64,000 bases of DNA, from NCBI GenBank assembly GCA_963682135.1, contig OY821645.1:64001-128000 (forward strand). The letters run 5' to 3'. Source of the DNA: Methanothrix sp. Its GTDB lineage: Archaea > Halobacteriota > Methanosarcinia > Methanotrichales > Methanotrichaceae. Shown in pieces: positions 1 to 18,488 of the stretch (its first letter is position 1; every line of letters begins with the position of its first letter). The notes beneath the pieces were generated by a model that saw only the letters and a program-made list of their open reading frames with translations, was not told the DNA's origin and did no database searches. A program made the translations under genes and the position numbers.

Positions 1-851
1 CTGTGCTCTATCAAAAGCATATCCATCAGCAGAAAGGCGTTTTTCACCGACTTGGATCGAGCATGGTTGTTAAAGTACACTCTCACCTTGGCGGCCTTCA
101 GCTCAGCCTCCTTGATGCGAGGCACCCAGGTCTCCAGTTGATCCTTCTTGTAGAGATAATCATATCTATTCAACCTGTGATCGTCCTCCTTTTCACCCTT
201 GTCCTCGCCCTGATACCAGATATCGTAGTTGCGGCCGTGAAAACGCACATAGGCGTGATCCGCGGTCTGCTTTCTGCCGGCATGAATCCCGGGGCCGTCG
301 ATCAGAACATTGGCGACATTCCTCTCTCTCAGAGCCTGCAGAGCATCGGGATCAATCTCCTTCTGGCCCATGCATAGCCAGCTCCTGTGCCGAAACTCGA
401 CTGCGTAGTTGTACTCTTTGTGAGAGACTGAATCCAGAAGGCCTTTTAATGCGGCAAGGGCAGAATCATCATTCTTGAAGTAGGGGGAGAGCTGGAGCAG
501 GACGCCACCCAGAAGGCCTGCTTCTGCCAGCGGCTTTATGCAGGTCTTCTCGAAAGAGGCGGCCCAGAAGACTGCTCGCTCTACATCCCCGTCCACGAGT
601 GCTTTGTGGGTGACGAGCTGAGGCACTTTGACTGAGTACTCGAAGCCCTTCAAATCTCTAGCCTTCTTTATCCAGGACTGGACCTGCTTCTCTCCTGGAG
701 GCCGGTAGAATGTGCTGTTGATCTCTACCGTCTGGAAGTAGTCTGCATAGTAAGAGAACCATTCGCCCTTCTTCCCGGCCAGATTCAACGGGTAGAATTT
801 CCCCACCCAATCATCGTAAGACCAGCCGCTGCATCCCACCAGGATTGTCAT
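1..851 (-). CDS. DUF72 domain protein (3' end runs off the window)
   Basis: Minus-strand frame from ATG at 851 reads MTILVGCSGWSYDDWVGKFYP...YADYFQTVEINSTFYRPP, the typical DUF72 N-terminal motifs. It is absent from the ORF track because there is no stop inside the window. Confidence 0.85.
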   Translation of the reverse strand, partial: MTILVGCSGWSYDDWVGKFYPLNLAGKKGEWFSYYADYFQTVEINSTFYRPPGEKQVQSWIKKARDLKGFEYSVKVPQLVTHKALVDGDVERAVFWAASFEKTCIKPLAEAGLLGGVLLQLSPYFKNDDSALAALKGLLDSVSHKEYNYAVEFRHRSWLCMGQKEIDPDALQALRERNVANVLIDGPGIHAGRKQTADHAYVRFHGRNYDIWYQGEDKGEKEDDHRLNRYDYLYKKDQLETWVPRIKEAELKAAKVRVYFNNHARSKSVKNAFLLMDMLLIEH

Positions 852-1235: not shown

Positions 1236-3191
1236 ATGTGGATCTTCGACTCTTACTACAAGGGCTGCGTGGAGCTGTGGGGCCGGGAGAGAGGTCTCAC
1301 CAAAGCCAGTGCGACCTATCCTCAATCGTTCTACATGCATCTTCCGGACCCTCCCGCTCACAGGGAGATGATCGAGGCTCTGGAGAGTCGCTTCAAGGTA
1401 GAGGATTGTAGCTTTAAAACCATCTTCGGCACTTTTCAGGGCCACAGGATATATGCCGACCGAAAAGTTGCCGAGAAGATCGAGATCCAAACCCGCCACC
1501 AGGTCGAACTCTACAATGTCGATGTCCGCCAGGACCAGCGTTATCTGGCCGAGCACAATCTCTTCCCCTGTGGAGATGGTGATGATTCCCGGTTCTCGCC
1601 CGACTTTGCCGTTCCCCTGACCAGCCTGAAGCTGCAGCTGGCCGGTGATCCTTCTCTGCCCGGGGATATCAGCATCAGTCGCATTGAAATCCAGAATGGC
1701 CGCAAGCGAAGGCTGGAAGGATCGGAGAGAATGGTTCTCTGTGACCTCCTGGATCTCATCAAGGCTCATGATCCCGACCTGATCCTGTGTCCTCATGCCG
1801 ACACCTGGATTCCCATCATCCTCCGCAAGGCCAAAAGATACGGCCTGCAGTCCACCATCAGCCGCAGCGGCTTCTTCAAGCCGATGGCCTCCAAGTCCTA
1901 CTGGAGCTATGGAAAGGTGAGCCACAAAGAGGGCGCTCTCATCCCCGAGGGCCGGATACTCATAGACACTGCCAGGAGCTTCGTCTATGCCGAGAGCGGC
2001 CTGAAGGGCGTACTCATGGCCTCCCGGCTCTCCGGTCTCTCGCCGAACCTCACGGCCCGCTTCACGCCCGGAACACTCATCTCCAGCTACGAGGTCTTCG
2101 AGGCGCTGCGCCGGAACATAGCAGTGCCCTTTCGCAAGAGAGATGCAGAGGGCCACAGAAATATTTGCGAGCTGAGGGCCTGCGACAAAGGCGGCATGAT
2201 CTTCCAGCCCGAACCTGGGGTGTACGAGGCCGTCCACCAGATCGATTTCACATCCCTCTATCCCTCGATCATTGTGAAGTACAACCTCTCCCCCGAGACC
2301 ATCAGAGATCCCGAGCAGAAGGGCTTTTTGAGCACCGTTATCTCCTCGCTGCTCAATTTGCGCATCGAGACCAAGAGGCGAAAGAAGATCGACCCGGATT
2401 ATGCCGGCATAGACTCCATCCTTAAGTGGATGCTGGTAACCTGTTTCGGCTACACCGGCTACCGCAATGCCAAGTTCGGCCAGATCCAGGTCCATGAGCG
2501 GATCACTGGTATCTCCCGGGAGCTGCTCATGCAGATCAAGGAGCTGGCCGAGGTAATGGACTTTCAGGTCCTGCACGGCATTGTGGACTGTTTATGGGTT
2601 ATTGGTGAGCCCATAGCCGGCTTCAAGGAAGCTGTGGAGAAGGAGACCGGCATCCTGACGGAGGTGGATTCATACGATTGGATCGCTTTCCTGCCCATGG
2701 CAGACGGCTTTGGTGCCTACAACCGCTACTTTGGGCGGCTGGACACGGGCAAGATGAAGATCCGGGGAGTCATGGCCCGCAAAGCAGATACGCCTGAGTA
2801 CGTGCTGCGCATGCAAAAAGAGCTGTTCGAGATCCTGGCTGGGGCAGGGAGCCGGGAGGAGCTGAGGAGGATGCAGCCAGAGGCGCGAGAGGTGCGCCGG
2901 CGGTACTTGGAGGGGCTTGCAGGGGCAGGTGTAGACATCCGGGAGCTGGCCATTCATCGCCGGGTCAGCAGGCGCAGCTACTCCCGCAGGTGTGCTGAGG
3001 CTATGGCGGTAGCCGCTCACCAGAAGCAGGGTATTGCCCTGGAGCCGGGGATGGAGATAGGCTACGTGGTGAAGGATGCCAAAAGGTGGGAGGTGGAACC
3101 GGATAGGACTGCATCGGAGTACGATGCCGGGTATTACCGCAAACTTCTGGATAAGGCCTGGGAGGAGGTGGCGTATGTATTTACCGTTTGA
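1236..3191 (+). CDS. polB2: Family B DNA polymerase, PolB2 group
   Basis: Motif A QIDFTSLYPSII, motif B LKWMLVTCFGY, and motif C altered to HGIVDC (vs YGDTDS). The exonuclease domain is degenerate. These are PolB2 hallmarks. Confidence 0.88.
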   Translation: MWIFDSYYKGCVELWGRERGLTKASATYPQSFYMHLPDPPAHREMIEALESRFKVEDCSFKTIFGTFQGHRIYADRKVAEKIEIQTRHQVELYNVDVRQDQRYLAEHNLFPCGDGDDSRFSPDFAVPLTSLKLQLAGDPSLPGDISISRIEIQNGRKRRLEGSERMVLCDLLDLIKAHDPDLILCPHADTWIPIILRKAKRYGLQSTISRSGFFKPMASKSYWSYGKVSHKEGALIPEGRILIDTARSFVYAESGLKGVLMASRLSGLSPNLTARFTPGTLISSYEVFEALRRNIAVPFRKRDAEGHRNICELRACDKGGMIFQPEPGVYEAVHQIDFTSLYPSIIVKYNLSPETIRDPEQKGFLSTVISSLLNLRIETKRRKKIDPDYAGIDSILKWMLVTCFGYTGYRNAKFGQIQVHERITGISRELLMQIKELAEVMDFQVLHGIVDCLWVIGEPIAGFKEAVEKETGILTEVDSYDWIAFLPMADGFGAYNRYFGRLDTGKMKIRGVMARKADTPEYVLRMQKELFEILAGAGSREELRRMQPEAREVRRRYLEGLAGAGVDIRELAIHRRVSRRSYSRRCAEAMAVAAHQKQGIALEPGMEIGYVVKDAKRWEVEPDRTASEYDAGYYRKLLDKAWEEVAYVFTV

Positions 3192-5385: not shown

Positions 5386-5774
5386 ATCCAAGCATGTCCT
5401 GCGTTCTGGGCGGCTCACGCCCTGCGGCGCGTTTTTTCGCGCGCGGCATCCCTGCATAGCGGATTACAGGAAATAACTTAAAAGGAAAAGTTAAGATAGT
5501 AGTAATGCCATCTCGCGGATGCACTAGATTTGGCGAGCATGCCCCTGCCGGGCAGGGCCGTCCGGGCCAGACGGATGGACTTAATGGGACGGAGAACGTC
5601 CCATTTTCACGCATCGAGGTGGTGTTCAGTTTCCTAGGAGATGCGTGAAAGGTCTGTGCATATCGAAAAGGGCCTTATGCAACTGTTAACTTTCTGAAAG
5701 TATTAGTATAAGTTGACATTATGCGTGAAAATCGTCTTTTTTTCGATATCTGTGAAGGCCGAAAAATGGCCGCC
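5386..5774 (+). promoter_or_regulatory. Extended leader of CRISPR array 1 (duplicated at 10786-11282)
   Basis: Near-identical to the region upstream of array 2. Contains BRE/TATA-like GGAAAAGTTAAGATA (~5484) and GAAAGTATTAGTATAA (~5696) and abuts the first repeat. Confidence 0.8.
5507..5674 (+). ncRNA. Candidate structured RNA element, copy 1
   Basis: Hairpins CCCTGC/GCAGGG, CCGTC/GACGG, AATGGGACG/CGTCCCATT and TTCACGCATC/GATGCGTGAA, with closing pairing ATGCAC/GTGCAT. It lies just downstream of a TATA-like box. Confidence 0.5.
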
Positions 5775-6471
5775 GTCTCCATGACTGAAAAGTCGTGGCC
5801 GAATTGAAACTAATGTACGTTCTGCGTATCAATGGTTCCCATGGTAGTCTCCATGACTGAAAAGTCGTGGCCGAATTGAAACTAAAAATCAGATACTAAC
5901 GTTTCGGACTCACGGTCAGGTCTCCATGACTGAAAAGTCGTGGCCGAATTGAAACCATTAGCTAACGCAAAAGAATACCTCGCGCTAACTAAGTCTCCAT
6001 GACTGAAAAGTCGTGGCCGAATTGAAACGCTCTGAAAGCTTGCGTTTCTCGCGTTCCATCTCTTTTGTCTCCATGACTGAAAAGTCGTGGCCGAATTGAA
6101 ACCTTTTATCAGCCATTATACAGCTTCTTGTAAACGAGTCTCCATGACTGAAAAGTCGTGGCCGAATTGAAACCTTGGTTCGGCAGGGAATTCTGTGAGG
6201 TTGTCTGACTGTCTCCATGACTGAAAAGTCGTGGCCGAATTGAAACGGAGAGCTCTGACATTAAATCGCCTCCGACCCTCGCCAGTCTCCATGACTGAAA
6301 AGTCGTGGCCGAATTGAAACCATCTACATCATGTAGTTTTTTCAAACTCACCACTTCCCTTGTCTCCATGACTGAAAAGTCGTGGCCGAATTGAAACTTG
6401 TCAAAGTTCTCTTTGAACTTCAACGAGTGGGCATTGTCTCCATGACTGAACAGTCGTGGCCGAACTGAAAC
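5775..6471 (+). CRISPR. CRISPR array 1: 10 repeats, 9 spacers; repeat GTCTCCATGACTGAAAAGTCGTGGCCGAATTGAAAC (36 bp)
   Basis: Identical repeats with 35-41-bp unique spacers and a degenerate last repeat (6436-6471). The ATTGAAAC 3' end and upstream leader give + orientation. Confidence 0.98.
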
Positions 6472-6559: not shown

Positions 6560-6884
6560 GTGCGGCTGGAAAGTGGCGGCGATACCGATTATGAGCTATA
6601 TGAGCTTATAGGCAAACACCCTGGACAGGGCGCTTATGAGCTCTCTAAGCTGAACGGCTGGACTGCAGGCCGCACACACTCATCAATATTGCGATTGGAG
6701 AAAAAAGGGCTCGTATTTGTGGAGCGCATTGTTCAAGGTGGGAGGACAAAGCTTGTGGTTCGTCCCAGGCCATGGCAGAATTTCTTCACACGATGAAATG
6801 CGTCGGCCCGGATACTTCGATGATGTCGAAAAATGGCTGAGCGAACAGAGGGCTGAAGGGCCACTATCACCGTCGGATCATTGA
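6560..6884 (+). pseudogene. Winged-helix DNA-binding protein, probably frameshifted
   Basis: ELIGKHPGQGAYELSKLNGWTAGRTHSSILRLEKKGLV is a wHTH. The frame stops at 6796, but another frame continues DEMRRPGYFDDVEKWLSEQ to 6884. Confidence 0.55.
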
Positions 6885-8630
6885 GACCGCTTTGGAAAAT
6901 ATCTTTCCCAAACCAAATCCGCTCTCATCCTTTAAAGACCAATCCTTTCCCATCTTTGCATCAGTCTCGCAAGGTATGACCTTTAGCATCTCATTTCCTG
7001 CCTGTTCCATTACTTCTTTGAGGAGCTTAGATGCTTTCGTTGCCTGTTTATCCGGAACTTCCAAAAGAATGCTGTCATGAACTGCATTAATAAGCCGAAA
7101 GTCGCTGTACGCAGGGGAAGCAATCTTTTCGTAGAGCCTGCCCAGAGCGATCTTTTGGAGATCAGCCCCTGTCGCCTGCACAGGAGTGTTTATCAGAGCA
7201 TTTCTGTGCTGAGGATCAACATACCTTATGCGTCCCAATGCAGATCTGGAAATTTTGTATGTCTCACTGCCGATAGCAGTAAGCCTTGCTCTATCTGAGA
7301 CCATTTGCTGCCAGCTCTTCAAACCGGGATAGGCGGCATAAAATCTATATAAAAATTCTTTTGCATCATCCTCGGTCAGGCTAGGCAGATTGGAGAGAAT
7401 CATATTTACTCCGCCCCCATAAATGGTCCCATAATTTAAAGTCTTGGCTATCTGCCTCTCTTCATCTGAGATCCTTGTCTTTTGAAAGATGGCCTGTGCC
7501 GTCTGCTTATGGGGATCAAGACCTTTCTTGAAGATATTTTGCATGGCTTTATCTCCGGAGAGCACGGCAATAATCCTCATCTCAATGGCGGAGAAATCCG
7601 CCTCCACGAAAGTCATTCCCTGCGAGGCCACAAAGAGCTTTTTCAGATGCGGCTCCCTTGGGATCTGCTGAATGTTCGGCCTGGAACAGGTGATGCGACC
7701 ACTTCTGCCGCCCAGCTGGGTCAGCCTTGGATAAATTCGACCTTCTCGGGCATTGTCCGTCCAATTTTTTAAAAATCCGATCTGCTGTCTGAGCTTTCTG
7801 TATTCGAGAAGAGAATTTATGAATGTCTCCTCTGGATGCACCAATAATATTCTCTCCAGGTCCGCAGCCGAAGTGCTCTCCAAGTTATATCCGTGGCTAT
7901 GCAACAACTTCTTCACGTGAACTGGATTGCGGGGATTGAATCCGCTCATTTTCTTCGACTTTGCATATTGTTGCAGCTTCTTCTCCAGTCTGTCCTTTTC
8001 TTTGACCAGACTCTCCAAAAGCCGCCGGCCTTTATCTTCGTTGAAGCCTATCCCGTTGTATTCGATCTCCACTAATGCGGGCAGTGCCTCAAATTCGATT
8101 TTGGCAACTTTTTCCAAACCCTGCATCTTGAGGAGAGCCCTCTGTTTAGCCTGGATCCTCTCCAGAATTGCGCAGGCTCTGGCGGCATAATCCATCTCTC
8201 TCGCCGAAGGCTTGCTTCCTTTGTCTGATGCTTTAGGACTGTCGTCAAAATGCCATCCCAATAAATCCCTGCAAATTGATTGCAGAGAATATTCTTGATA
8301 GGAAAGGCCATTGTCTAGAAGCTGTGAGGCCAGCATGGTATCCCAGAGATTGGGAAGCTCAAGTCTACTGTCGAAAATCTTTCTGATGACACCTAGATCG
8401 AACAGCAGATTATATCCCACAACCTGACAAGACGGGCACTCCAACAAAGGGATGATCTCGTCAAGCAGCTCTGGAGCCAGCAAAGCCTGACCGTAGTCAC
8501 CTGCAATCGAGATGAACCTGAGATTGGATGAGCTTGGCATGGAACCTGCGTCTGTACTCAAATGCAGATAGAAGGTGGAGGGCTCACTACGGGGCTTGCA
8601 GGACCAGGAAGAAAGAAGCGCTTTGGCCAT
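6867..8630 (-). CDS. polA: Family A DNA polymerase (3'-5' exo-like + polymerase domains, no 5' nuclease), CRISPR-embedded
   Basis: SGRITCSRPNIQQIP, motif A ADFSAIEMRIIA, motif B RQIAKTLNYGTIYG, NTPVQATGAD and motif C VHDSILLEV. RBS GAGGAGGT before the ATG. Confidence 0.93.
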   Translation of the reverse strand: MAKALLSSWSCKPRSEPSTFYLHLSTDAGSMPSSSNLRFISIAGDYGQALLAPELLDEIIPLLECPSCQVVGYNLLFDLGVIRKIFDSRLELPNLWDTMLASQLLDNGLSYQEYSLQSICRDLLGWHFDDSPKASDKGSKPSAREMDYAARACAILERIQAKQRALLKMQGLEKVAKIEFEALPALVEIEYNGIGFNEDKGRRLLESLVKEKDRLEKKLQQYAKSKKMSGFNPRNPVHVKKLLHSHGYNLESTSAADLERILLVHPEETFINSLLEYRKLRQQIGFLKNWTDNAREGRIYPRLTQLGGRSGRITCSRPNIQQIPREPHLKKLFVASQGMTFVEADFSAIEMRIIAVLSGDKAMQNIFKKGLDPHKQTAQAIFQKTRISDEERQIAKTLNYGTIYGGGVNMILSNLPSLTEDDAKEFLYRFYAAYPGLKSWQQMVSDRARLTAIGSETYKISRSALGRIRYVDPQHRNALINTPVQATGADLQKIALGRLYEKIASPAYSDFRLINAVHDSILLEVPDKQATKASKLLKEVMEQAGNEMLKVIPCETDAKMGKDWSLKDESGFGLGKIFSKAVSMIRR

Positions 8631-8693: not shown

Positions 8694-10451
8694 ATGATAG
8701 TAGTAGCTTGGGGTTTTTTGGTGATGGATAATTCTGGATCAAAAGCGGATGTGCCGGATCTAATCCCGGCCCGTATGCTCAGCGAGTTCGCCTACTGTCC
8801 ACGGCTCTGCTATATTGAGTGGATCGACGGCGAGTTCGCAGATAATGAAGAGACGGTGGATGGCAGGTTTGTGCATCGCCGGGTGGACGCAAAGGAAGAT
8901 ACTATTCCCGATGATGAGATCGAAACTGAGACCGAAACAGTTCACGCTCGATCTCTGTTTCTCACCGGCCCCAAGGTTGGAATTACCTGCCGGATAGATC
9001 TCCTGGAAGGTGATGGCGAAAGGGTGACGCCTGTAGATTACAAGAGAGGCAAAGCACCTAACATTCCCGAAGGAGCATATGAACCGGATCGCGTCCAGCT
9101 TTGCGCTCAGGGCCTGGTTCTGAGAGAGAACGGTTTCAAATGCGACAGTGGCATCGTCTACTTTGTCCGCTCCAAAAAGCGGATTTCTATAGCTTTTGAT
9201 AAAGCCCTGATTAAGAGGGCAAACGATCTTATCTCCGATCTGAGGAAAATTGCAGAAAAGCGAGAGATTCCTCCACCATTGCAGGATAGCCCCAAGTGCA
9301 ATCGCTGTTCTCTGGCGGGCATTTGCCTTCCTGACGAGGTAAACCTTCTGCGGGACTCGGATGGAAAAGAAGCTGGTGAGGGTGGGCTCCTGGGCAAGAT
9401 CAGGAGGCTTCTCCCGGCCAGAGACGACACTATGCCGGTCTACGTTGTGGGGCACGGCAATACCGTTCGCAAGAAAGGTGACCTCCTGGAGATATGTTCC
9501 CGAGATGACGTCGCAGCAGGCAAAGAAGGCAGAATAAAGGAAGTGAGGTTAAGAGAGATCTCTCAGGTGAACCTTTTTGGTGGAGTTGATGTCTCGATGC
9601 CTGCCCTTGTCGAGCTTATGCAGCGGGGCATCCCCGTCCTGCACTTCACAAGGGGTGGATGGTTTCAGGGATTGAGCGCCGGGCATACTCATAAAAATGT
9701 GCAGCTACGCATGCGACAGTTTGCCTGGGCTGAGGACCGCAAGAAATCTCTGTCCATCGCTCGCGCTATAGTCTACGGCAAGATCAAAAACTGCCGGATT
9801 CAGGTACGCAGGAACTACGCTAAAGCCAACGCCCAGTCTCCTGATAATGCACTGGACAGGCTGGAGCGTCTTTCCAAGGATGCCAGAAATGCGTCCGGCA
9901 TCGATAAGCTTCTGGGAATCGAAGGCGCGGCAGCCGAAGTTTACTTTGGCTGTCTTGGTCAAATGCTCAAAGCCGATCGTGGATTCTCCTTTGAAAACAG
10001 GAATAGGAGGCCGCCCAAAGACCCTGTTAACGCGGTTCTTTCCTATATCTATGCAGTGCTTGCCAAAGACATGTTTGTCTCCCTCCTGGCGGTAGGCTTC
10101 GATCCGTATCTCGGTTTCTACCACCAGCCCCGCTATGGCCGCCCGGCTCTGGCGCTGGACATGATGGAAGAGTTTCGGCCGGTGATTGCTGATGCCACTG
10201 CCATCACCCTATTCAACAAAGGTGAGCTATCAGATAAGGATTTTATCAAGACGGGAATCGGAGTGTCTCTGACCTCCAAGGGAAAGAAAAAGGTCATAGC
10301 AGGCTACGAGAGACGCATGGAGACGGAGATCACTCATCCCCTCTTCGGATACAGCGTCAGCTACAGGAGGGTTCAGGAAGTGCAGGCGCGGCTGTTGTCC
10401 AGAACAATTTCCGGTGAGATCAAGGAGTATCCTGCATTTTACAGGAAGTGA
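8694..10451 (+). CDS. cas4-cas1: Cas4-Cas1 fusion (type I-G/I-U-like); likely start at 8724
   Basis: Cas4 motifs: YCPR, RIDLL..PVDYKRG, QLCAQ, CNRCSLAGIC. Cas1 motifs: GIEGAAA, NRRPPKDPVNAVLS, FYH, DMMEEFRP. Confidence 0.95.
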   Translation: MIVVAWGFLVMDNSGSKADVPDLIPARMLSEFAYCPRLCYIEWIDGEFADNEETVDGRFVHRRVDAKEDTIPDDEIETETETVHARSLFLTGPKVGITCRIDLLEGDGERVTPVDYKRGKAPNIPEGAYEPDRVQLCAQGLVLRENGFKCDSGIVYFVRSKKRISIAFDKALIKRANDLISDLRKIAEKREIPPPLQDSPKCNRCSLAGICLPDEVNLLRDSDGKEAGEGGLLGKIRRLLPARDDTMPVYVVGHGNTVRKKGDLLEICSRDDVAAGKEGRIKEVRLREISQVNLFGGVDVSMPALVELMQRGIPVLHFTRGGWFQGLSAGHTHKNVQLRMRQFAWAEDRKKSLSIARAIVYGKIKNCRIQVRRNYAKANAQSPDNALDRLERLSKDARNASGIDKLLGIEGAAAEVYFGCLGQMLKADRGFSFENRNRRPPKDPVNAVLSYIYAVLAKDMFVSLLAVGFDPYLGFYHQPRYGRPALALDMMEEFRPVIADATAITLFNKGELSDKDFIKTGIGVSLTSKGKKKVIAGYERRMETEITHPLFGYSVSYRRVQEVQARLLSRTISGEIKEYPAFYRK

Positions 10452-10457
10452 TTTGAT

Positions 10458-10760
10458 TTGAGTGGAAGGAATTGTTATGTTGTAAGCTACGACATCATGG
10501 ACCAGAGACGATTACAGAAGGTCCACAAGACTATGAAGGGCTTCGGTGAGGCAATCCATTATTCGGTTTTTCGCTGTGATCTGACCGGCAAAGGCCGTGT
10601 GGAAATGGTGGCGGCGCTCACCGACCTGATCAAGCACGATCAGGACAGGATCATGATACTGGATCTTGGACCTATGGACGGCAGAGCGGATCAGAGGATT
10701 GAATTTCTCGGCATTCATGCCAAAGATCCGGACTCGCCCCGAAGGGCCGTTATCATATAA
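10458..10760 (+). CDS. cas2: CRISPR-associated endonuclease Cas2
   Basis: YVVSYDI..RRLQKVHKTMKGFG..IHYSVFRCDL, directly after cas1. Confidence 0.95.
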   Translation: MSGRNCYVVSYDIMDQRRLQKVHKTMKGFGEAIHYSVFRCDLTGKGRVEMVAALTDLIKHDQDRIMILDLGPMDGRADQRIEFLGIHAKDPDSPRRAVII

Positions 10761-10905
10761 ATTTTGGGTGCATCCAGCACGTTGAATCCAAGCCTGCCCG
10801 GCGTTAAGGGTGCCCGGGATCTACCGCGCGTTTTTTCGCGCGCGGCACCCCAGAAGATTGGATGAAATAAAACAAATAAGATCCATTGTAGTCCAATGCA
10901 GGTCA

Positions 10906-11012
10906 GACAATATCGCTGGGGAAAGTTTAGATAGTAGTAATCGCTAAAAGATCCTTCAAAATCTATTTCATGTTCCGACAATATCGCTGGGGAAAGTTTA
11001 GATAGTAGTAAT
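10906..11012. repeat. Perfect 36-bp direct repeat GACAATATCGCTGGGGAAAGTTTAGATAGTAGTAAT x2, separated by 35 bp
   Basis: Copies at 10906-10941 and 10977-11012. Confidence 0.92.
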
Positions 11013-11182
11013 GCCATCTCGCGGATGCACAAGATTTGGCGAGCATGCCCCTGCCGGGCAGGGCCGTCCGGGCCAGACGGATGGACTTAATGGGACGGAG
11101 AACGTCCCTTTTTTCCGCGCATCGAGGTGGTGTTCAGTTTCCCAGGAGATGCGCAGAAGGTCTGTGCATATCGAAAAAGACC
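11013..11182 (+). ncRNA. Candidate structured RNA element, copy 2
   Basis: Same hairpins as copy 1. ACGCATC/GATGCGT becomes GCGCATC/GATGCGC, a compensatory change. Confidence 0.5.
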
Positions 11183-11282
11183 ATTTGCAGACAGTAACTT
11201 TCTGAAAGTATTGTAATAAGTTAACAACATGCGCTGAAATTGACTTTTTTTCGATATCTGTGAAGGCCGAAAAATGGCCGCT

Positions 11283-12494
11283 GTCTCCATGACTGAAAAG
11301 TCGTGGCCGAATTGAAACCACCATATTGATAGCATGGTTGCAACTATATTTTTTTCATGTCTCCATGACTGAAAAGTCGTGGCCGAATTGAAACATTACC
11401 GGACGTTTTGTCCGTGTCTAACCCGAACATGGTTGTCTCCATGACTGAAAAGTCGTGGCCGAATTGAAACCTCAACGAATAGTTGTTCTTCTCTTCGTGC
11501 CTGTGGTCTCCATGACTGAAAAGTCGTGGCCGAATTGAAACGAGCCGGATTGGTCGAGGGGCATCCAGCTCATCAAGTCTCCATGACTGAAAAGTCGTGG
11601 CCGAATTGAAACCCTTTGATGTTTGTTTCAAGGAACAGAAGTAAGGTTGTCTCCATGACTGAAAAGTCGTGGCCGAATTGAAACGTCCGAGATTGTAAAG
11701 GAAAGACATAAATCTTGACGTCTCCATGACTGAAAAGTCGTGGCCGAATTGAAACACGTTTACCGTTACGATATCACATTCTGCATAAATGGTCTCCATG
11801 ACTGAAAAGTCGTGGCCGAATTGAAACTGGTTTGCATATGTAGTATCCCACAATGCCATAGCCTGAGTCTCCATGACTGAAAAGTCGTGGCCGAATTGAA
11901 ACCTTGTTCGAGCTGTGCAGATTACATGAATCCGCACCGTCTCCATGACTGAAAAGTCGTGGCCGAATTGAAACTTGCCAATTTTTTGGAGCTCTTCCAA
12001 AATATACCTGGTCTCCATGACTGAAAAGTCGTGGCCGAATTGAAACTCCATTGTTACTCTCACGATTGACACCTTCTATTTTTTCAGTCTCCATGACTGA
12101 AAAGTCGTGGCCGAATTGAAACTATTTCTCGGTGCAAGAACCTCAACTTTCGCCATCTGTCTCCATGACTGAAAAGTCGTGGCCGAATTGAAACCTTCTT
12201 TTCGGTTGTTTTGAATACCGAACTGAAAAATTGTGTCTCCATGACTGAAAAGTCGTGGCCGAATTGAAACGCAGAATATCAATTTTTAAGTTTTTCGCTT
12301 TCTTTGACCGTCTCCATGACTGAAAAGTCGTGGCCGAATTGAAACTTCTTTCACTTCCATAAAACTCACTCTCCGTGAACGTCTCCATGACTGAAAAGTC
12401 GTGGCCGAATTGAAACCATCCTCAATACCGAACTGCTTCATACTTTGTCTCATCCGGAGTCTCCATGACTGGAAAGTCGTGGTCGAATTGAAAT
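11283..12494 (+). CRISPR. CRISPR array 2: 17 repeats, 16 spacers, same 36-bp repeat
   Basis: Identical repeats with 35-42-bp spacers and a degenerate terminal repeat at 12459-12494. Confidence 0.98.
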
Positions 12495-16840: not shown

Positions 16841-18488
16841 CCTGACCTCCCCATTTTTTAGGCACACATATGAATGGCATCCAGAATTTGACGCTGTTTC
16901 TTAGTGATCTCGGTCGTGATTCTTTCTCCATCCGGCAAGACCATGATCTTGATTTTTTCGAGTTCAGTGAACAATCCCTCAACCGAGTATCTTTTATTCA
17001 GCTCGGCATCGATCATCATTCGCATGAGCTTCATCCTCAAGATCAGAGCAAGGAATGAAATGAATAGGTAGCCCCTTAGACTACTGTTGGTCCTCAGGTT
17101 CGCGGGCATCAAATCGATGTCGTTCTTCAGAACATCGAATCCCTTTTCAACGATATCCTTGCTTCTATAAAGCGCAAGACATTCCACCCACGTGAACTCG
17201 CCTCGATAAAGCAAGATAAACTTTCCCATTTTATTAATAGCCTGGGAGACCGCATTTTTTCTAAGTGATACCTGAAACTTACCGTCTATTGCTTTCCATT
17301 CTATAAACTTGGCATCTCTTTTCGCAGTCGCCCTGAAAACTTCTCCAGGATTCATCCAGGGTTTCAGGTTCTTGGACTTGAGCACTTCCATCAAATCGTA
17401 GAGTCGCTTATAAAACGTATTTCTTTCCTGCTGCTCTCTTTTCTGATCGTAATATGCATATCCGTTCAGCTTGTTTTCACCAACATCGATCTCTACAGGC
17501 ATCACAAACAGCGGCTCTTTTTCATAGAGTTTTAGATGCTCTGGATCGTCAATGCTTTTGTGGATAGCAGATATCGCTTCTTTGACGTTCTTGAGATTAC
17601 TCGTTGGCGGAATAATGAACGACAGATCTGCAGATATCATCTCCTCGATATTGTCGGTTGAAAAGAAGCCTCTATCCATGATCAGAGTATAATTTCTGAC
17701 GCCCTGTGCATTCATTTTCTTGATAGTATTCTTAAGCGTAGATACATCTGCGATGCTTCCTGGGTAGAGATCATACATCAACGGTATGCCCAGATCTTTG
17801 TCCACGACTAGAGACAGATTGATTTGAGGCAGGTCGAGGCCATCTCGATTATAGCCGTATTCAAGGAGGCTGATGCTCTGAGAGTAAGACGAAAAGGAGG
17901 TTATATCGTAGACTAGCGTGCTGGCTGTGGATACTTGCTCAATGAGTTTGCGAGAGAATTCCAGATTCACAGTACCTTCACCGATACTGCTTAGCATTCG
18001 TGAAAGGCTCTGTGATGATAAGGGAAGATTCGGATGGTCTTCAGACATGACCGTACCTTCATACCAGCTCTGGATATGGGTTAGTGCTCGGGGGTGTGTG
18101 GCATAGTTCATTGCCAGTGTCAAAATCGGCCGGACTTCTTTACCAGGAAGAACATCAGAGAGGATCTTTTCTAGCTTAAGGTCCTCTGTGATCTTCTTGA
18201 GTGGAACGAATTCGCCATGCGATAGCACTTTCTTGGGGATTTGGTCTTTGGCGCGAACCTTCACGGGAACTCCATTGACATTCTTTCCCAAGTATTTGCT
18301 TTTCTGCCGAATTTGCTTCTTTTCCTTATCGTAATAAGGTGTAATTTCATATATGTATTCCAGGCCATTTATCTTTTTGGTTCGAATAAAAGATTTCATG
18401 TTGTATTTAGGCACAGCATACTATTTATAGTTTTTGGTCATCGATGGCGAAAATTGATCAGATATGCCTAAATTTCGGGGAGCTTAGG
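16841..18488 (-). mobile_element. IS1634-family insertion sequence, complete
   Basis: Imperfect terminal inverted repeats CCTGACCTCCCC / CCTAAGCTCCCC and a 6-bp target duplication TTTGAG (16835-16840 and 18489-18494). Confidence 0.88.
16858..18414 (-). CDS. IS1634-family DDE transposase
   Basis: YDITS, GYNRDG..LPQINL, MDRGF and YRSKDIVEKGFDVLK. Confidence 0.92.
   Translation of the reverse strand: MPKYNMKSFIRTKKINGLEYIYEITPYYDKEKKQIRQKSKYLGKNVNGVPVKVRAKDQIPKKVLSHGEFVPLKKITEDLKLEKILSDVLPGKEVRPILTLAMNYATHPRALTHIQSWYEGTVMSEDHPNLPLSSQSLSRMLSSIGEGTVNLEFSRKLIEQVSTASTLVYDITSFSSYSQSISLLEYGYNRDGLDLPQINLSLVVDKDLGIPLMYDLYPGSIADVSTLKNTIKKMNAQGVRNYTLIMDRGFFSTDNIEEMISADLSFIIPPTSNLKNVKEAISAIHKSIDDPEHLKLYEKEPLFVMPVEIDVGENKLNGYAYYDQKREQQERNTFYKRLYDLMEVLKSKNLKPWMNPGEVFRATAKRDAKFIEWKAIDGKFQVSLRKNAVSQAINKMGKFILLYRGEFTWVECLALYRSKDIVEKGFDVLKNDIDLMPANLRTNSSLRGYLFISFLALILRMKLMRMMIDAELNKRYSVEGLFTELEKIKIMVLPDGERITTEITKKQRQILDAIHMCA

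Follow-up and report, generated by a model that had tools for sequence, protein, structure and literature searches.

A modular structured leader upstream of CRISPR arrays and cas4-cas1 genes in a family of methanogenic archaea, with a possible role as a regulatory RNA

The leaders of CRISPR arrays (short palindromic repeats, clustered and regularly interspaced) are usually viewed as promoters and as DNA integration signals, and the RNA elements known from them are few, small, first-repeat hairpins. Leader RNA takes part in spacer prioritisation in type II-A systems, and boxA antitermination acts on bacterial arrays. Here we describe the leaders of two CRISPR arrays in a stretch of 64,000 nucleotides (nt) from the archaeon Methanothrix sp. 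of the family Methanotrichaceae (assembly GCA_963682135.1, contig OY821645.1, positions 64,001 to 128,000 of the forward strand), which is called the window below and in whose own numbering positions are given. Their common element is a large leader RNA that occurs family-wide, with many helices, a probable pseudoknot at the 5′ end, two alternative folds, and a module that is reused at the spacer-acquisition genes. Four sources describe the closest systems. In type VI systems, leader-repeat hairpins, in which the leader pairs with the first repeat, affect repeat processing (PMC13187072). The small RNA (sRNA) PhrS represses Rho termination in a type I-F leader (PMC6700203), and in Synechocystis the type III-Dv array gives a leader transcript of 125 nt to which the helicase CrhR binds (bioRxiv 10.1101/2023.12.07.570523). 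For the archaeal Thermococcales and Methanococcales, the leader motifs are treated as DNA in histone-assisted integration, and the same paper notes that such motifs might work either at the DNA level or as RNA in cis (PMC13748974).

Like the type VI and type II-A hairpins, the element would be a cis-acting structure in a transcribed CRISPR leader, conserved across related systems. Unlike them, its structure lies wholly in the leader and is about ten times larger, comprises a pseudoknot module and two alternative helices, and places its 5′ module before cas genes as well, while pairing between leader and repeat is at chance level. The longest complementary run between leader and repeat was 8 nt (G-U included), which was equalled by 816 of 1000 shuffles, and the leader-repeat duplex energy was −21.6 against −22.9 ± 2.9 for the shuffles. 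Since this complementarity is at chance level, the element is neither a trans-activating CRISPR RNA (tracrRNA) nor of the leader-repeat hairpin kind, in agreement with an earlier first-pass annotation of the window, which had seen no anti-repeat. With the PhrS and boxA cases it may share the use of leader RNA as a decision point for transcription into an untranslated array; those cases are bacterial, need Rho, Nus factors or an sRNA, and have no large conserved fold, whereas here the host is archaeal, an oligo-T tract is present, and the switch proposed from the sequence would be intrinsic to the leader. Riboswitches and attenuators are resembled in that, within the 5′ leader of the units that it would control, a structured and conserved 5′ domain comes first and mutually exclusive helices come next, before a U-tract. 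The leader departs from them in that the common strand is the 5′-most one, the “terminator” helix extends over about 105 nt, sister leader families lack the U-tract, and no Rfam family matches: the search that the first-pass annotation had proposed returned nothing for the whole window at the gathering score (Rfam 15) and nothing for 5450-5850 at E ≤ 10. The archaeal leaders of PMC13748974 are also long, with conserved blocks hundreds of bases upstream that include the transcription factor B recognition element (BRE) and TATA box, and with a conserved repeat-adjacent motif; the blocks found here differ from those in that they covary as base pairs, show a wobble bias and have their place downstream of the promoter. 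The Synechocystis type III-Dv case offers the likeness of a discrete leader transcript with a post-transcriptional host-protein interaction, and differs in being bacterial and unrelated in sequence, with neither a covarying structure nor a cas-gene module in its partially available report. No structured leader RNA from this archaeal family was found in the full-text literature, taken as main texts; the supplements of PMC13748974 and PMC13187072 may bear on novelty.

The first-pass annotation had drawn attention to two GC-rich blocks of about 170 nt, each said to follow a BRE/TATA-like motif. Both are present (5507-5674 and 11013-11182), each behind such a motif (5484-5498 and 10990-11004), and 159 of their 168 aligned bases are identical (about 95%), with a 2-nt insertion in copy 2. 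The blocks have GC contents of 58% and 59%, compared with 36% for the remainder of leader 1 (5675-5774) and 51% for the window as a whole. However, the limits of about 170 nt proved too narrow, as the leader-to-leader alignment extends beyond 5674, from the promoter box to the repeat. By this sequence comparison, the blocks are the 5′ part (two-thirds) of a leader of about 250 nt and not a separate 170-nt element, and the conserved unit covers about 5520-5774 (second copy about 11026-11282) and reaches the first repeat. Because covariation cannot be established from a pair of copies with 95% identity, relatives were collected. BLAST of 5480-5790 against 101 genomes of the family (own genome included) matched 57 of them, with full-length matches down to about 70% identity. 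The 54 leaders reaching the repeat were aligned with MAFFT (alignment A2, which is not fitted to any structure); as only matches reaching the repeat were kept, their repeat adjacency is by construction. The stretch from UCUGG through hairpin H2, taken from 61 places (A3), was the source of a covariance model with hairpins H1 and H2 (R1). A search of the family with R1 listed about 49 new places, of which 40 were fetched, and 101 R1 matches (95 distinct) from 100 loci were aligned to the model (A4), so that A4 leans towards the model. The shuffle controls given below are not probabilities; the stronger argument comes from the slid controls and from how many distinct variants there are.

The 5′ module, consisting of the pseudoknot, H1 and H2 (Table 1), was paired in 90.4% of cells on A4, with a score of 0.205 against 0.146 for shuffled alignments (reached by 0 of 500) and at most 0.081 for slid ones. 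In H2, the pair 61:85 is AU in 52, GU in 25 and GC in 17 sequences (A4), while the inner columns of H1 are poorly aligned because the length of its loop varies. Hairpin H3 was detected in the helix scan by columns 135-138 with 157-160, which have 4, 3, 2 and 1 pair types, and it is optional, being absent or replaced in some lineages. The two strands of the pseudoknot were paired in 94.9% of cells over the 95 distinct sequences, 87 of which have at least five contiguous complementary bases. Double changes were observed in a four-sequence lineage (UCUGC or UCUGU against a loop with GCAGAG or ACAGAG) and in one sequence with UCCGG and CCGGA; three CCGGA loops retain U-G wobbles. On these sequence comparisons the pseudoknot is probable and not proven, since both strands are so conserved that double changes are few. 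A conserved structured 5′ domain of the kind that serves as sensor in riboswitches and attenuators is found in the pseudoknot, H1 and H2 throughout the 95 distinct sequences. Hairpins H1, H2 and H3 are kept by compensatory changes in the 54 leaders. From the earlier claim of four hairpins inside a closing stem, the closing stem and the last hairpin are not conserved. The closing stem ATGCAC/GTGCAT with its extension is paired in 68% of cells, with a score of 0.217 against 0.194 shuffled that is reached by 16 of 500 shuffles. The last hairpin, GGTCT/GGGCC, is paired in only 61% of cells in the 54 leaders and is not conserved, so the “covariation” reported there between the two copies does not generalise. 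The change from A-U to G-C in ACGCATC..GATGCGT is real, the 54 homologs having GC in 27, AU in 22, GU in 4 and another combination in 1. A pair of copies so alike was insufficient on its own, but covariation was found in the 54 to 95 homologs, and these compensatory changes support the proposal of a functional structured RNA tied to CRISPR arrays.

The 3′ domain is built around the strand S1, which is complementary to two downstream strands, S2 and S3. On A2, the helix S1:S2 was 91.6% paired, with 9 of 11 pairs changing on both sides; all 8 pairs of its core are present in 27 of the 54 leaders, and a further 18 have 7 of the 8. The core of S1:S3 has 7 of 7 pairs in 36 leaders and 6 of 7 in 17. 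Despite 17 different S1 cores, both helices (at least 7/8 for S1:S2 and at least 6/7 for S1:S3) are kept in 45 of the 54 leaders, so that mutually exclusive helices with a common strand, as in riboswitches and attenuators, are present in this family of leaders, and exact S1/S2/S3 triples were seen in other leader families. The pair 192:299 of S1:S3 is UA in 28, GC in 14 and CG in 12 leaders with no unpaired cell, and 188:303 is CG in 45 and AU in 9. Ranked by mutual information, 192:299 came first, and 192:219 (S1:S2) was joint second with 219:299 (S2-S3). The unaided RNAalifold run on the homologs, a check that the first-pass annotation had suggested, returned H2 and the long-range S1:S3 on A2, and a scan for stacked complementary columns gave S1:S2, S1:S3, H2, H3, the long-range helix P-LR and a possible UCUGG/CCAGA pseudoknot. 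As a set on A2, H2, S1:S2, P-LR and the candidate helix “H6” were 90.0% paired, with a score of 0.203 against 0.119 shuffled (0/500) and a best slid score of 0.081; for H2, S1:S3 and “H6” the values were 85.2%, 0.270, 0.139 (0/500) and 0.104, respectively. “H6” itself was rejected as an RNA helix, as it is 79.2% paired on A2 with A-C (49) exceeding G-U (13).

The two leaders of the genome itself differ by a coordinated change of S1, S2 and S3, with CAC/GTG in leader 1 and CGC/GCG in leader 2. Among 13 leaders that were found through the 5′ module and belong to arrays with other, related repeats, 10 have an S1 of 7-11 nt whose exact reverse complement occurs twice downstream, a pattern found in 36 of 2600 shuffles; in seven of these ten the partners are the S2 and S3 homologs, exactly 79 nt apart, and in the other three they are AT-rich runs at other spacings. 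In P-LR, ATATCGAAAA is paired to the T-tract; the helix scan gave UAUCGAAAA (5661-5669) with UUUUCGAUA (5740-5748), three pairs change on both sides (A2), and all 9 of 9 pairs are present in 37 of the 54 leaders. A comparable pairing, GCATAACGAAAAT with ATTTTGCCGATATGC, was seen by eye in a second leader family. Oligo-T terminates archaeal transcription, and the T7 tract is a candidate for an oligo-U site of termination or pausing. Of the 54 leaders, 40 have T7 and 14 have T6, and the tract follows S3 by 5 nt in all 54. The predicted energies for 5522-5774 are −96.9 kcal/mol for the fold with S1:S2 and P-LR and −84.8 for that with S1:S3, in which the U-tract is left unpaired and the helix ends 5 nt ahead of it. 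Two further motifs were looked for by eye and rejected: a kink-turn (K-turn) on top of S1:S2 in the long leader, whose GA/GA step is not conserved on A2, and a bulge-helix-bulge site of the splicing endonuclease, since both the S helices and P-LR are continuous.

Table 1. Positions of the leader elements, CRISPR arrays and neighbouring genes in the window (A2, alignment of 54 leaders; A4, alignment of 101 model matches).
Feature	Position	Strand	Description
GC-rich palindromic box with T6	5389-5452	+	GGCGCGTTTTTTCGCGCGCGGC; just upstream of the leader 1 promoter; leaders align here
BRE/TATA-like promoter box, leader 1	5484-5498	+	GGAAAAGTTAAGATA
Pseudoknot 5′ strand (probable)	5529-5533	+	UUUGG (consensus UCUGG); pairs with H2 loop CCAGA, 5567-5571
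Hairpin H1	5543-5557	+	CCCUGC-CGG-GCAGGG; all 6 pairs change on both sides; 78.8% of cells paired (A4)
Hairpin H2	5558-5578	+	CCGUCCG/CGGAUGG, loop GGCCAGA nearly invariant; 97.6% of cells paired (A4)
Hairpin H3	5583-5605	+	AAUGGGACG-GAGAA-CGUCCCAUU; A2, helix scan, minimum free energy folds
S1	5604-5615	+	UUUUCACGCAUC; common 5′ strand of two mutually exclusive helices; 17 distinct cores among 54 leaders
S2	5640-5650	+	GAUGCGUGAAA; first partner of S1; local hairpin with conserved loop GAGGUGGUG..CCNGGGAG
P-LR 5′ strand	5660-5669	+	AUAUCGAAAA; pairs with 5740-5749; 92% of cells paired over 10 pairs
Two GTYRAC palindromes around AT-rich stretch	5685-5717	+	GTTAAC..AAAGTATTAGTATAA..GTTGAC; “H6” is GTTAACTT/AAGTTGAC
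S3	5721-5731	+	AUGCGUGAAAA; second partner of S1, 81 nt downstream of S2; near-identical to S2
T7 tract and CGATAT	5737-5749	+	T7 at 5737-5743; 3′ strand of P-LR at 5740-5749
Leader-repeat junction motif	5755-5774	+	AAGGCCGAAAAATGGCCGCC; most conserved part of the leader (A2), within the final 45 nt before the repeat, which are the most conserved
CRISPR array 1	5775-6471	+	10 repeats of GTCTCCATGACTGAAAAGTCGTGGCCGAATTGAAAC, final repeat degenerate; first repeat at 5775
Family A DNA polymerase (PolA-like)	6867-8630	−	Exonuclease (3′-5′) and polymerase domains (Pfam); between array 1 and cas4-cas1
cas4-cas1 fusion	8694-10451	+	Pfam Cas_Cas1 1.5e-90, Cas_Cas4 1.2e-20; between the two arrays
cas2	10458-10760	+	Pfam CRISPR_Cas2 1.3e-15; between the two arrays
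BRE/TATA-like box, leader 2	10990-11004	+	GGGAAAGTTTAGATA
Leader 2 (whole), with 5′ parts	10990-11282	+	TATA 10990-11004; pseudoknot strand 11035-11039; H1 11049-11063; H2 11064-11084; H3 11089-11111
Leader 2, S strands and P-LR	11110-11257	+	S1 11110-11123; S2 11148-11158; P-LR 11168-11177 with 11248-11257; S3 11229-11239
Leader 2, 3′ end	11245-11282	+	T7 11245-11251; junction 11263-11282
CRISPR array 2	11283-12494	+	17 repeats, final repeat degenerate; first repeat at 11283

As RNA of the plus strand, 5500-5690 folds at −75.9 kcal/mol (z = −3.2, with 0 of 200 shuffles as good), and the minus strand folds comparably (−67.7, z = −3.9), so the strand cannot be chosen from folding energy. Wobble pairs are more telling. 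Read on the plus strand, G-U outnumbers A-C by 48 to 2 in H2 and by 28 to 7 in the pseudoknot, from which the 5′ module is taken to be selected as RNA read from the plus strand; for H1 the counts are 52 to 27, for S1:S2 20 to 14, for S1:S3 14 to 11, for P-LR 15 to 10 and for “H6” 13 to 49. A TATA-like box was observed in all 54 leaders, in the same columns of A2 (about 29-38) and about 285 nt before the repeat, reading TTTAGATAG in close kin and ATTTAAAC or ATATAAAC in other leaders. From the usual archaeal spacing between TATA box and start, transcription is predicted to begin at about 5520-5526. Compared with leader 1, leader 2 has an insertion of 97 nt, within which the promoter box CAATATCGCTGGGGAAAGTTTAGATAGTAGTAAT occurs twice (10918-10943 and 10987-11012), about 70 nt apart.

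Short contigs (151-237 nt) of close relatives were found in four metatranscriptome runs, which come from three studies; only 4-8% of the sampled words were present, and the cover is informative only within 5526-5810. Run X1 gave a contig over 5534-5770, and X2 one over 5534-5750, whose end is the last P-LR base. The contig of X3 covers 5553-5770 with a 9-nt overhang matching an H1 loop variant. Two contigs came from X4, one covering 5526-5674 and thus starting within the predicted start region, the other covering 5710-5810 and followed by 49 nt of another strain’s spacer, so that it bridges the T-tract and repeat 1 into a spacer. Position 5534 recurs as a contig end in two studies, and so does 5770. 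These contigs support transcription of the leader, and their ends give a weak hint at most.

Matches to R1 were found in 53 of 105 genomes of the family (E ≤ 0.001). In a sample of the class, 36 of 74 genomes of the family (own genome aside) had matches, against none of 76 in four other families (0/3, 0/67, 0/4 and 0/2). Of the 101 matches, 52 are followed by at least two repeats within 450 nt and 13 by one repeat-like sequence (often where the fetched sequence is short), 10 stand ahead of a cas4-cas1 fusion at 135-640 nt (four of them with an intervening solo repeat), 8 are cut by a contig end, and 18 have other contexts. Inspected by eye, these 18 comprise six full leaders with a single truncated repeat, four truncated remnants and eight other contexts. 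The six orphan leaders (L020, L035, L047, L026, L045 and L050) are full-length, have one truncated repeat and then run into unrelated sequence; they are intact leaders left after loss of the array. Among the few contexts without a CRISPR link are L113 and L121, where the module scores lower (43-48 bits) and stands about 165-180 nt before a small, homologous open reading frame (ORF) of about 100 residues with a signal-peptide-like start. A near-identical leader with an array of at least five repeats was also found at 1-640 (minus strand) of a 30.6-kb IMG/VR contig (L146), which is filed as viral and may be a host fragment or a provirus-bearing piece.

Ahead of cas4-cas1 the leader takes a short form, namely the module, a conserved GGUCAGAG/CUCUGGCC helix with UGAGC..GCGAU, the motif GACCGAAA, and then a repeat or the gene (loci L102/L068, L107, L110, L112, L114, L115, L116, L117, L125 and L126), and the module precedes cas4-cas1 also where no array is present. 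The UGAGC-N3-5-GCGAU step, with tandem G-A pairs (K-turn- or K-loop-like), was seen by eye only, in about seven of the nine short leaders examined, and it may be a site for L7Ae, or the short leader an autoregulatory mini-array. In the genome itself, BLAST finds the two full copies and a 74-nt fragment upstream of a glycosyltransferase-like ORF (three places in 3.04 Mb), to which R1 adds the divergent leader of a third array. This array lies near 2.949 Mb (G000:C1, about 2949295-2950600 in genome numbering) and has ATTTCCATTTCTGAAAAGAAGTGGCTCCATTGAAAC as its repeat, in at least 10 copies; ahead of it stand a C-terminal Cas1 fragment of 38 residues, a cas2 homolog (60% identity) and the leader, which is one of the leaders of other repeat families described above and has the same 5′ module and S1/S2/S3 design. 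In neighbourhoods of roughly 3 kb around each leader, cas2 adjoins 54 leader loci, and PolA homologs adjoin leaders at about seven distinct places.

The reading that we favour, with somewhat more than even confidence, is that of a cis-acting structured regulatory leader RNA, and perhaps half of that confidence goes to the specific read-through switch outlined here; among the roles offered by the first-pass annotation, that of a regulator of array transcription is our best guess. It builds on the conservation, the base pairing, the strand, the linkage to CRISPR arrays and cas4-cas1 and the presence in RNA libraries described above. Transcription of the plus strand would start from the distal BRE/TATA box and run into the array. 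The RNA would then present, in order, the pseudoknot strand (about +5 to +12), H1-H2-H3, S1, the loop GAGGUGGUG..CCNGGGAG, S2, AUAUCGAAAA, a variable part, S3, GAAAAUCGNC, U7, CGAUAU, the junction motif and repeat 1. In the 5′ module, the first bases of the transcript (UCUGG) would form the pseudoknot with the CCAGA of the H2 loop, beside H1 and H3. The 3′ domain would be bistable, holding either the local hairpin S1:S2 together with P-LR or the long-range helix S1:S3 that ends 5 nt before the U-tract. S1:S2 can form first and, with P-LR, is predicted to be the more stable fold; once it has formed, RNA polymerase would continue and P-LR would then lock the fold. If S1 stayed free until S3 emerged, a long helix would arise just ahead of U7, and transcription might stop or the RNA be processed. 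The choice of fold during transcription would thereby set how much passes U7 into the array, or for how long the transcript survives. The 5′ module may be the part that is read by a protein or a small molecule, and the same module ahead of cas4-cas1 would couple expression of the array to that of the adaptation genes. Protection of the 5′ end by the terminal pseudoknot might be an alternative or an additional role. A further-reaching form, possible and in our view doubtful, is a riboswitch-like or protein-responsive switch whose 5′ pseudoknot module reads a cellular or infection signal and co-regulates, in cis, the CRISPR RNA (crRNA) of every array and cas4-cas1-cas2 in one methanogen family.

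Several points weigh against these proposals. The T-tract is specific to the family of the 54 leaders, and T4 or A6 stands in its place in other leader families, so that read-through control at U7 cannot be the general mechanism. With about 105 nt in the loop that it closes, S1:S3 does not look like a compact terminator hairpin, and to our knowledge hairpin-dependent termination is not established in archaea. The S helices are without wobble bias, and RNA-specific pairing is therefore not proven for S1:S2 and S1:S3. The AT-rich stretch with its GTYRAC palindromes (5685-5717) may be a feature of the DNA rather than an RNA helix, perhaps another promoter, proximal to the array; as such a promoter, it could make most of the leader dispensable for array transcription. 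No ligand or binding protein is known for the leader. The library contigs cannot show strand, ends or level, and DNA is possible in such libraries; moreover, the related sequences are not independent, and A4 is fitted to the model.

Other explanations fit parts of these data. A stand-alone sRNA, which we regard as unlikely, would be made from the distal promoter as a discrete RNA, about 220-250 nt long, whose 3′ end would fall at or just behind the U-tract and be shielded by P-LR; the array would be served by a proximal promoter in the AT-rich stretch at 5697-5712, and the sRNA would work in trans, for instance by scaffolding or regulating Cas4-Cas1-Cas2 or further Cas proteins. The shortness of the library contigs (151-237 nt) is consistent with this, four of the five lying wholly inside 5526-5770 and one ending at 5750, at the end of P-LR, as are the resemblance by eye of the proximal stretch GAAAGTATTAGTATAAG to the distal box GAAAAGTTAAGATAGTAG and the expectation that a T7 tract stops archaeal RNA polymerase. 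However, contig ends are not RNA ends, and the contig that begins at 5710 passes through the T-tract and repeat 1 and reaches a spacer. The sequence of the proximal AT-rich stretch is not conserved (A2), the T-tract is absent in other leader families, and at several loci the short form has the repeat or cas4-cas1 directly after the module, which leaves no room for a second promoter. It is rather improbable, in turn, that the conserved parts act wholly as DNA, positioning histones, the Cas4-Cas1-Cas2 integrase or another factor for integration at repeat 1, with S1, S2 and S3 as inverted and direct repeats, possibly in a cruciform, that are spaced like repeat-spacer units. The spacing does agree with such a role, S2 and S3 being 79-81 nt apart and S3 lying 73 nt from the matching place in repeat 1 at a repeat period of 72-76 nt, and so do the lack of a G-U over A-C bias in the S helices, the opposite bias in “H6” and the peak of conservation in the last 45 nt before the repeat. 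In archaeal leaders, DNA motifs up to about 500 bp upstream, including imperfect inverted-repeat pairs, affect integration according to PMC13748974. Against it stand the strong plus-strand wobble bias of H2 (48 to 2) and the pseudoknot (28 to 7), the location of the region downstream of a conserved TATA box with presence in RNA libraries, and the occurrence of the module before cas4-cas1 without an array. A protein that reads sequence does not explain the S strands either, since S1, S2 and S3 change together within one genome that has one nearby integrase, and 17 S1 variants occur within one repeat family. The DNA and RNA readings are not exclusive, and the junction motif is probably a DNA signal for integration, by analogy with the leader-proximal motifs in PMC13748974; a related GACCGAAA stands ahead of solo repeats in short leaders.

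The spacing would also suit S2 and S3 as relics of degenerate repeats, but the 17 S variants within one repeat family do not track the repeat, and we leave this reading undecided rather than supported. The suggestion in the first-pass annotation that the neighbouring family A DNA polymerase uses the RNA as a template or primer is very improbable. A PolA-like gene does lie between array 1 and cas4-cas1 (6867-8630), with homologs near leaders at about seven places, but most leaders are without PolA within the roughly 3 kb examined, cas2 stands beside 54 loci, and nothing like a retron or a reverse transcriptase was seen; the template of family A polymerases is DNA. The Csb2 named in the same annotation was not found among the 30 ORFs of the window scanned against Pfam. 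A miniature inverted-repeat transposable element (MITE), or a recent duplication without a function of its own, would account for the 95% identity of the copies in the window and for the 74-nt fragment by the glycosyltransferase-like ORF; copy number and context refute it, and we give it next to no probability. BLAST finds only the two leaders and that fragment in the 3.04-Mb genome, so this is not a dispersed mobile repeat. The helices are kept by compensatory change down to about 70% identity, nearly all copies stand ahead of CRISPR repeats or cas4-cas1, and no terminal inverted repeats or target duplications were seen. Overall, the observation in that annotation was partly confirmed and its interpretation partly supported, namely as regards a functional RNA.

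The two elements are CRISPR leaders: each directly precedes the first repeat of its array, at the end opposite the degenerate repeat, bears the promoter and is conserved among arrays with related repeats; since the degenerate repeats are at the far ends, the leaders stand on the 5′ side of arrays 1 and 2. All 27 copies of the repeat GTCTCCATGACTGAAAAGTCGTGGCCGAATTGAAAC in the genome are confined to these two arrays. Neither leader appears to be a gene for a protein: leader 1 has no ORF of at least 80 residues, and leader 2 is crossed by minus-strand ORFs only, which are not common to both. Besides those in Table 1, no further cas genes were found among the other ORFs of the window scanned against Pfam; Cas3 and a second Cas1 of the genome are located at 2.29 Mb, and Cas6 (PF01881) gave no match in the genome. 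The window also encodes SepRS, NrpR and a thermosome subunit, and the host is a methanogenic archaeon, whose genome forms a single contig of 3.04 Mb. The GC-rich box upstream of the leader 1 promoter has the form AAGCCTGCCCGGCGTT..GGGTGCCCGGG..GCGCGTTTTTTCGCGCGCGGC, with a second copy at about 10783-10850, upstream of the leader 2 promoter; it has seven matches in the genome at E ≤ 1 and is found again in relatives, downstream of orphan leaders. In appearance it is a terminator-like intergenic repeat, perhaps serving the upstream gene as terminator or insulator. Mobile or degraded elements were observed on the flanks of the CRISPR locus, namely a 651-residue ORF (1236-3191, plus strand) with only a short match to family B DNA polymerase (residues 317-360), and a DDE transposase gene (16858-18414, minus strand). 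A link between CRISPR adaptation genes and family A polymerase is possible.

The leader RNA described here is new, modular and specific to the family, and there is a fair chance that it is truly a switch of CRISPR expression. Even if it merely stabilised the transcript, it would be an undescribed RNA family with good comparative support, fit for an Rfam entry. If it is regulatory, it would provide a handle on how archaea switch CRISPR expression and adaptation, together with an RNA of about 60 nt for tests with ligands or proteins. Should the sensor reading be true, it would be the first RNA sensor controlling CRISPR-Cas and one of the few RNA switches acting at the level of transcription in archaea.

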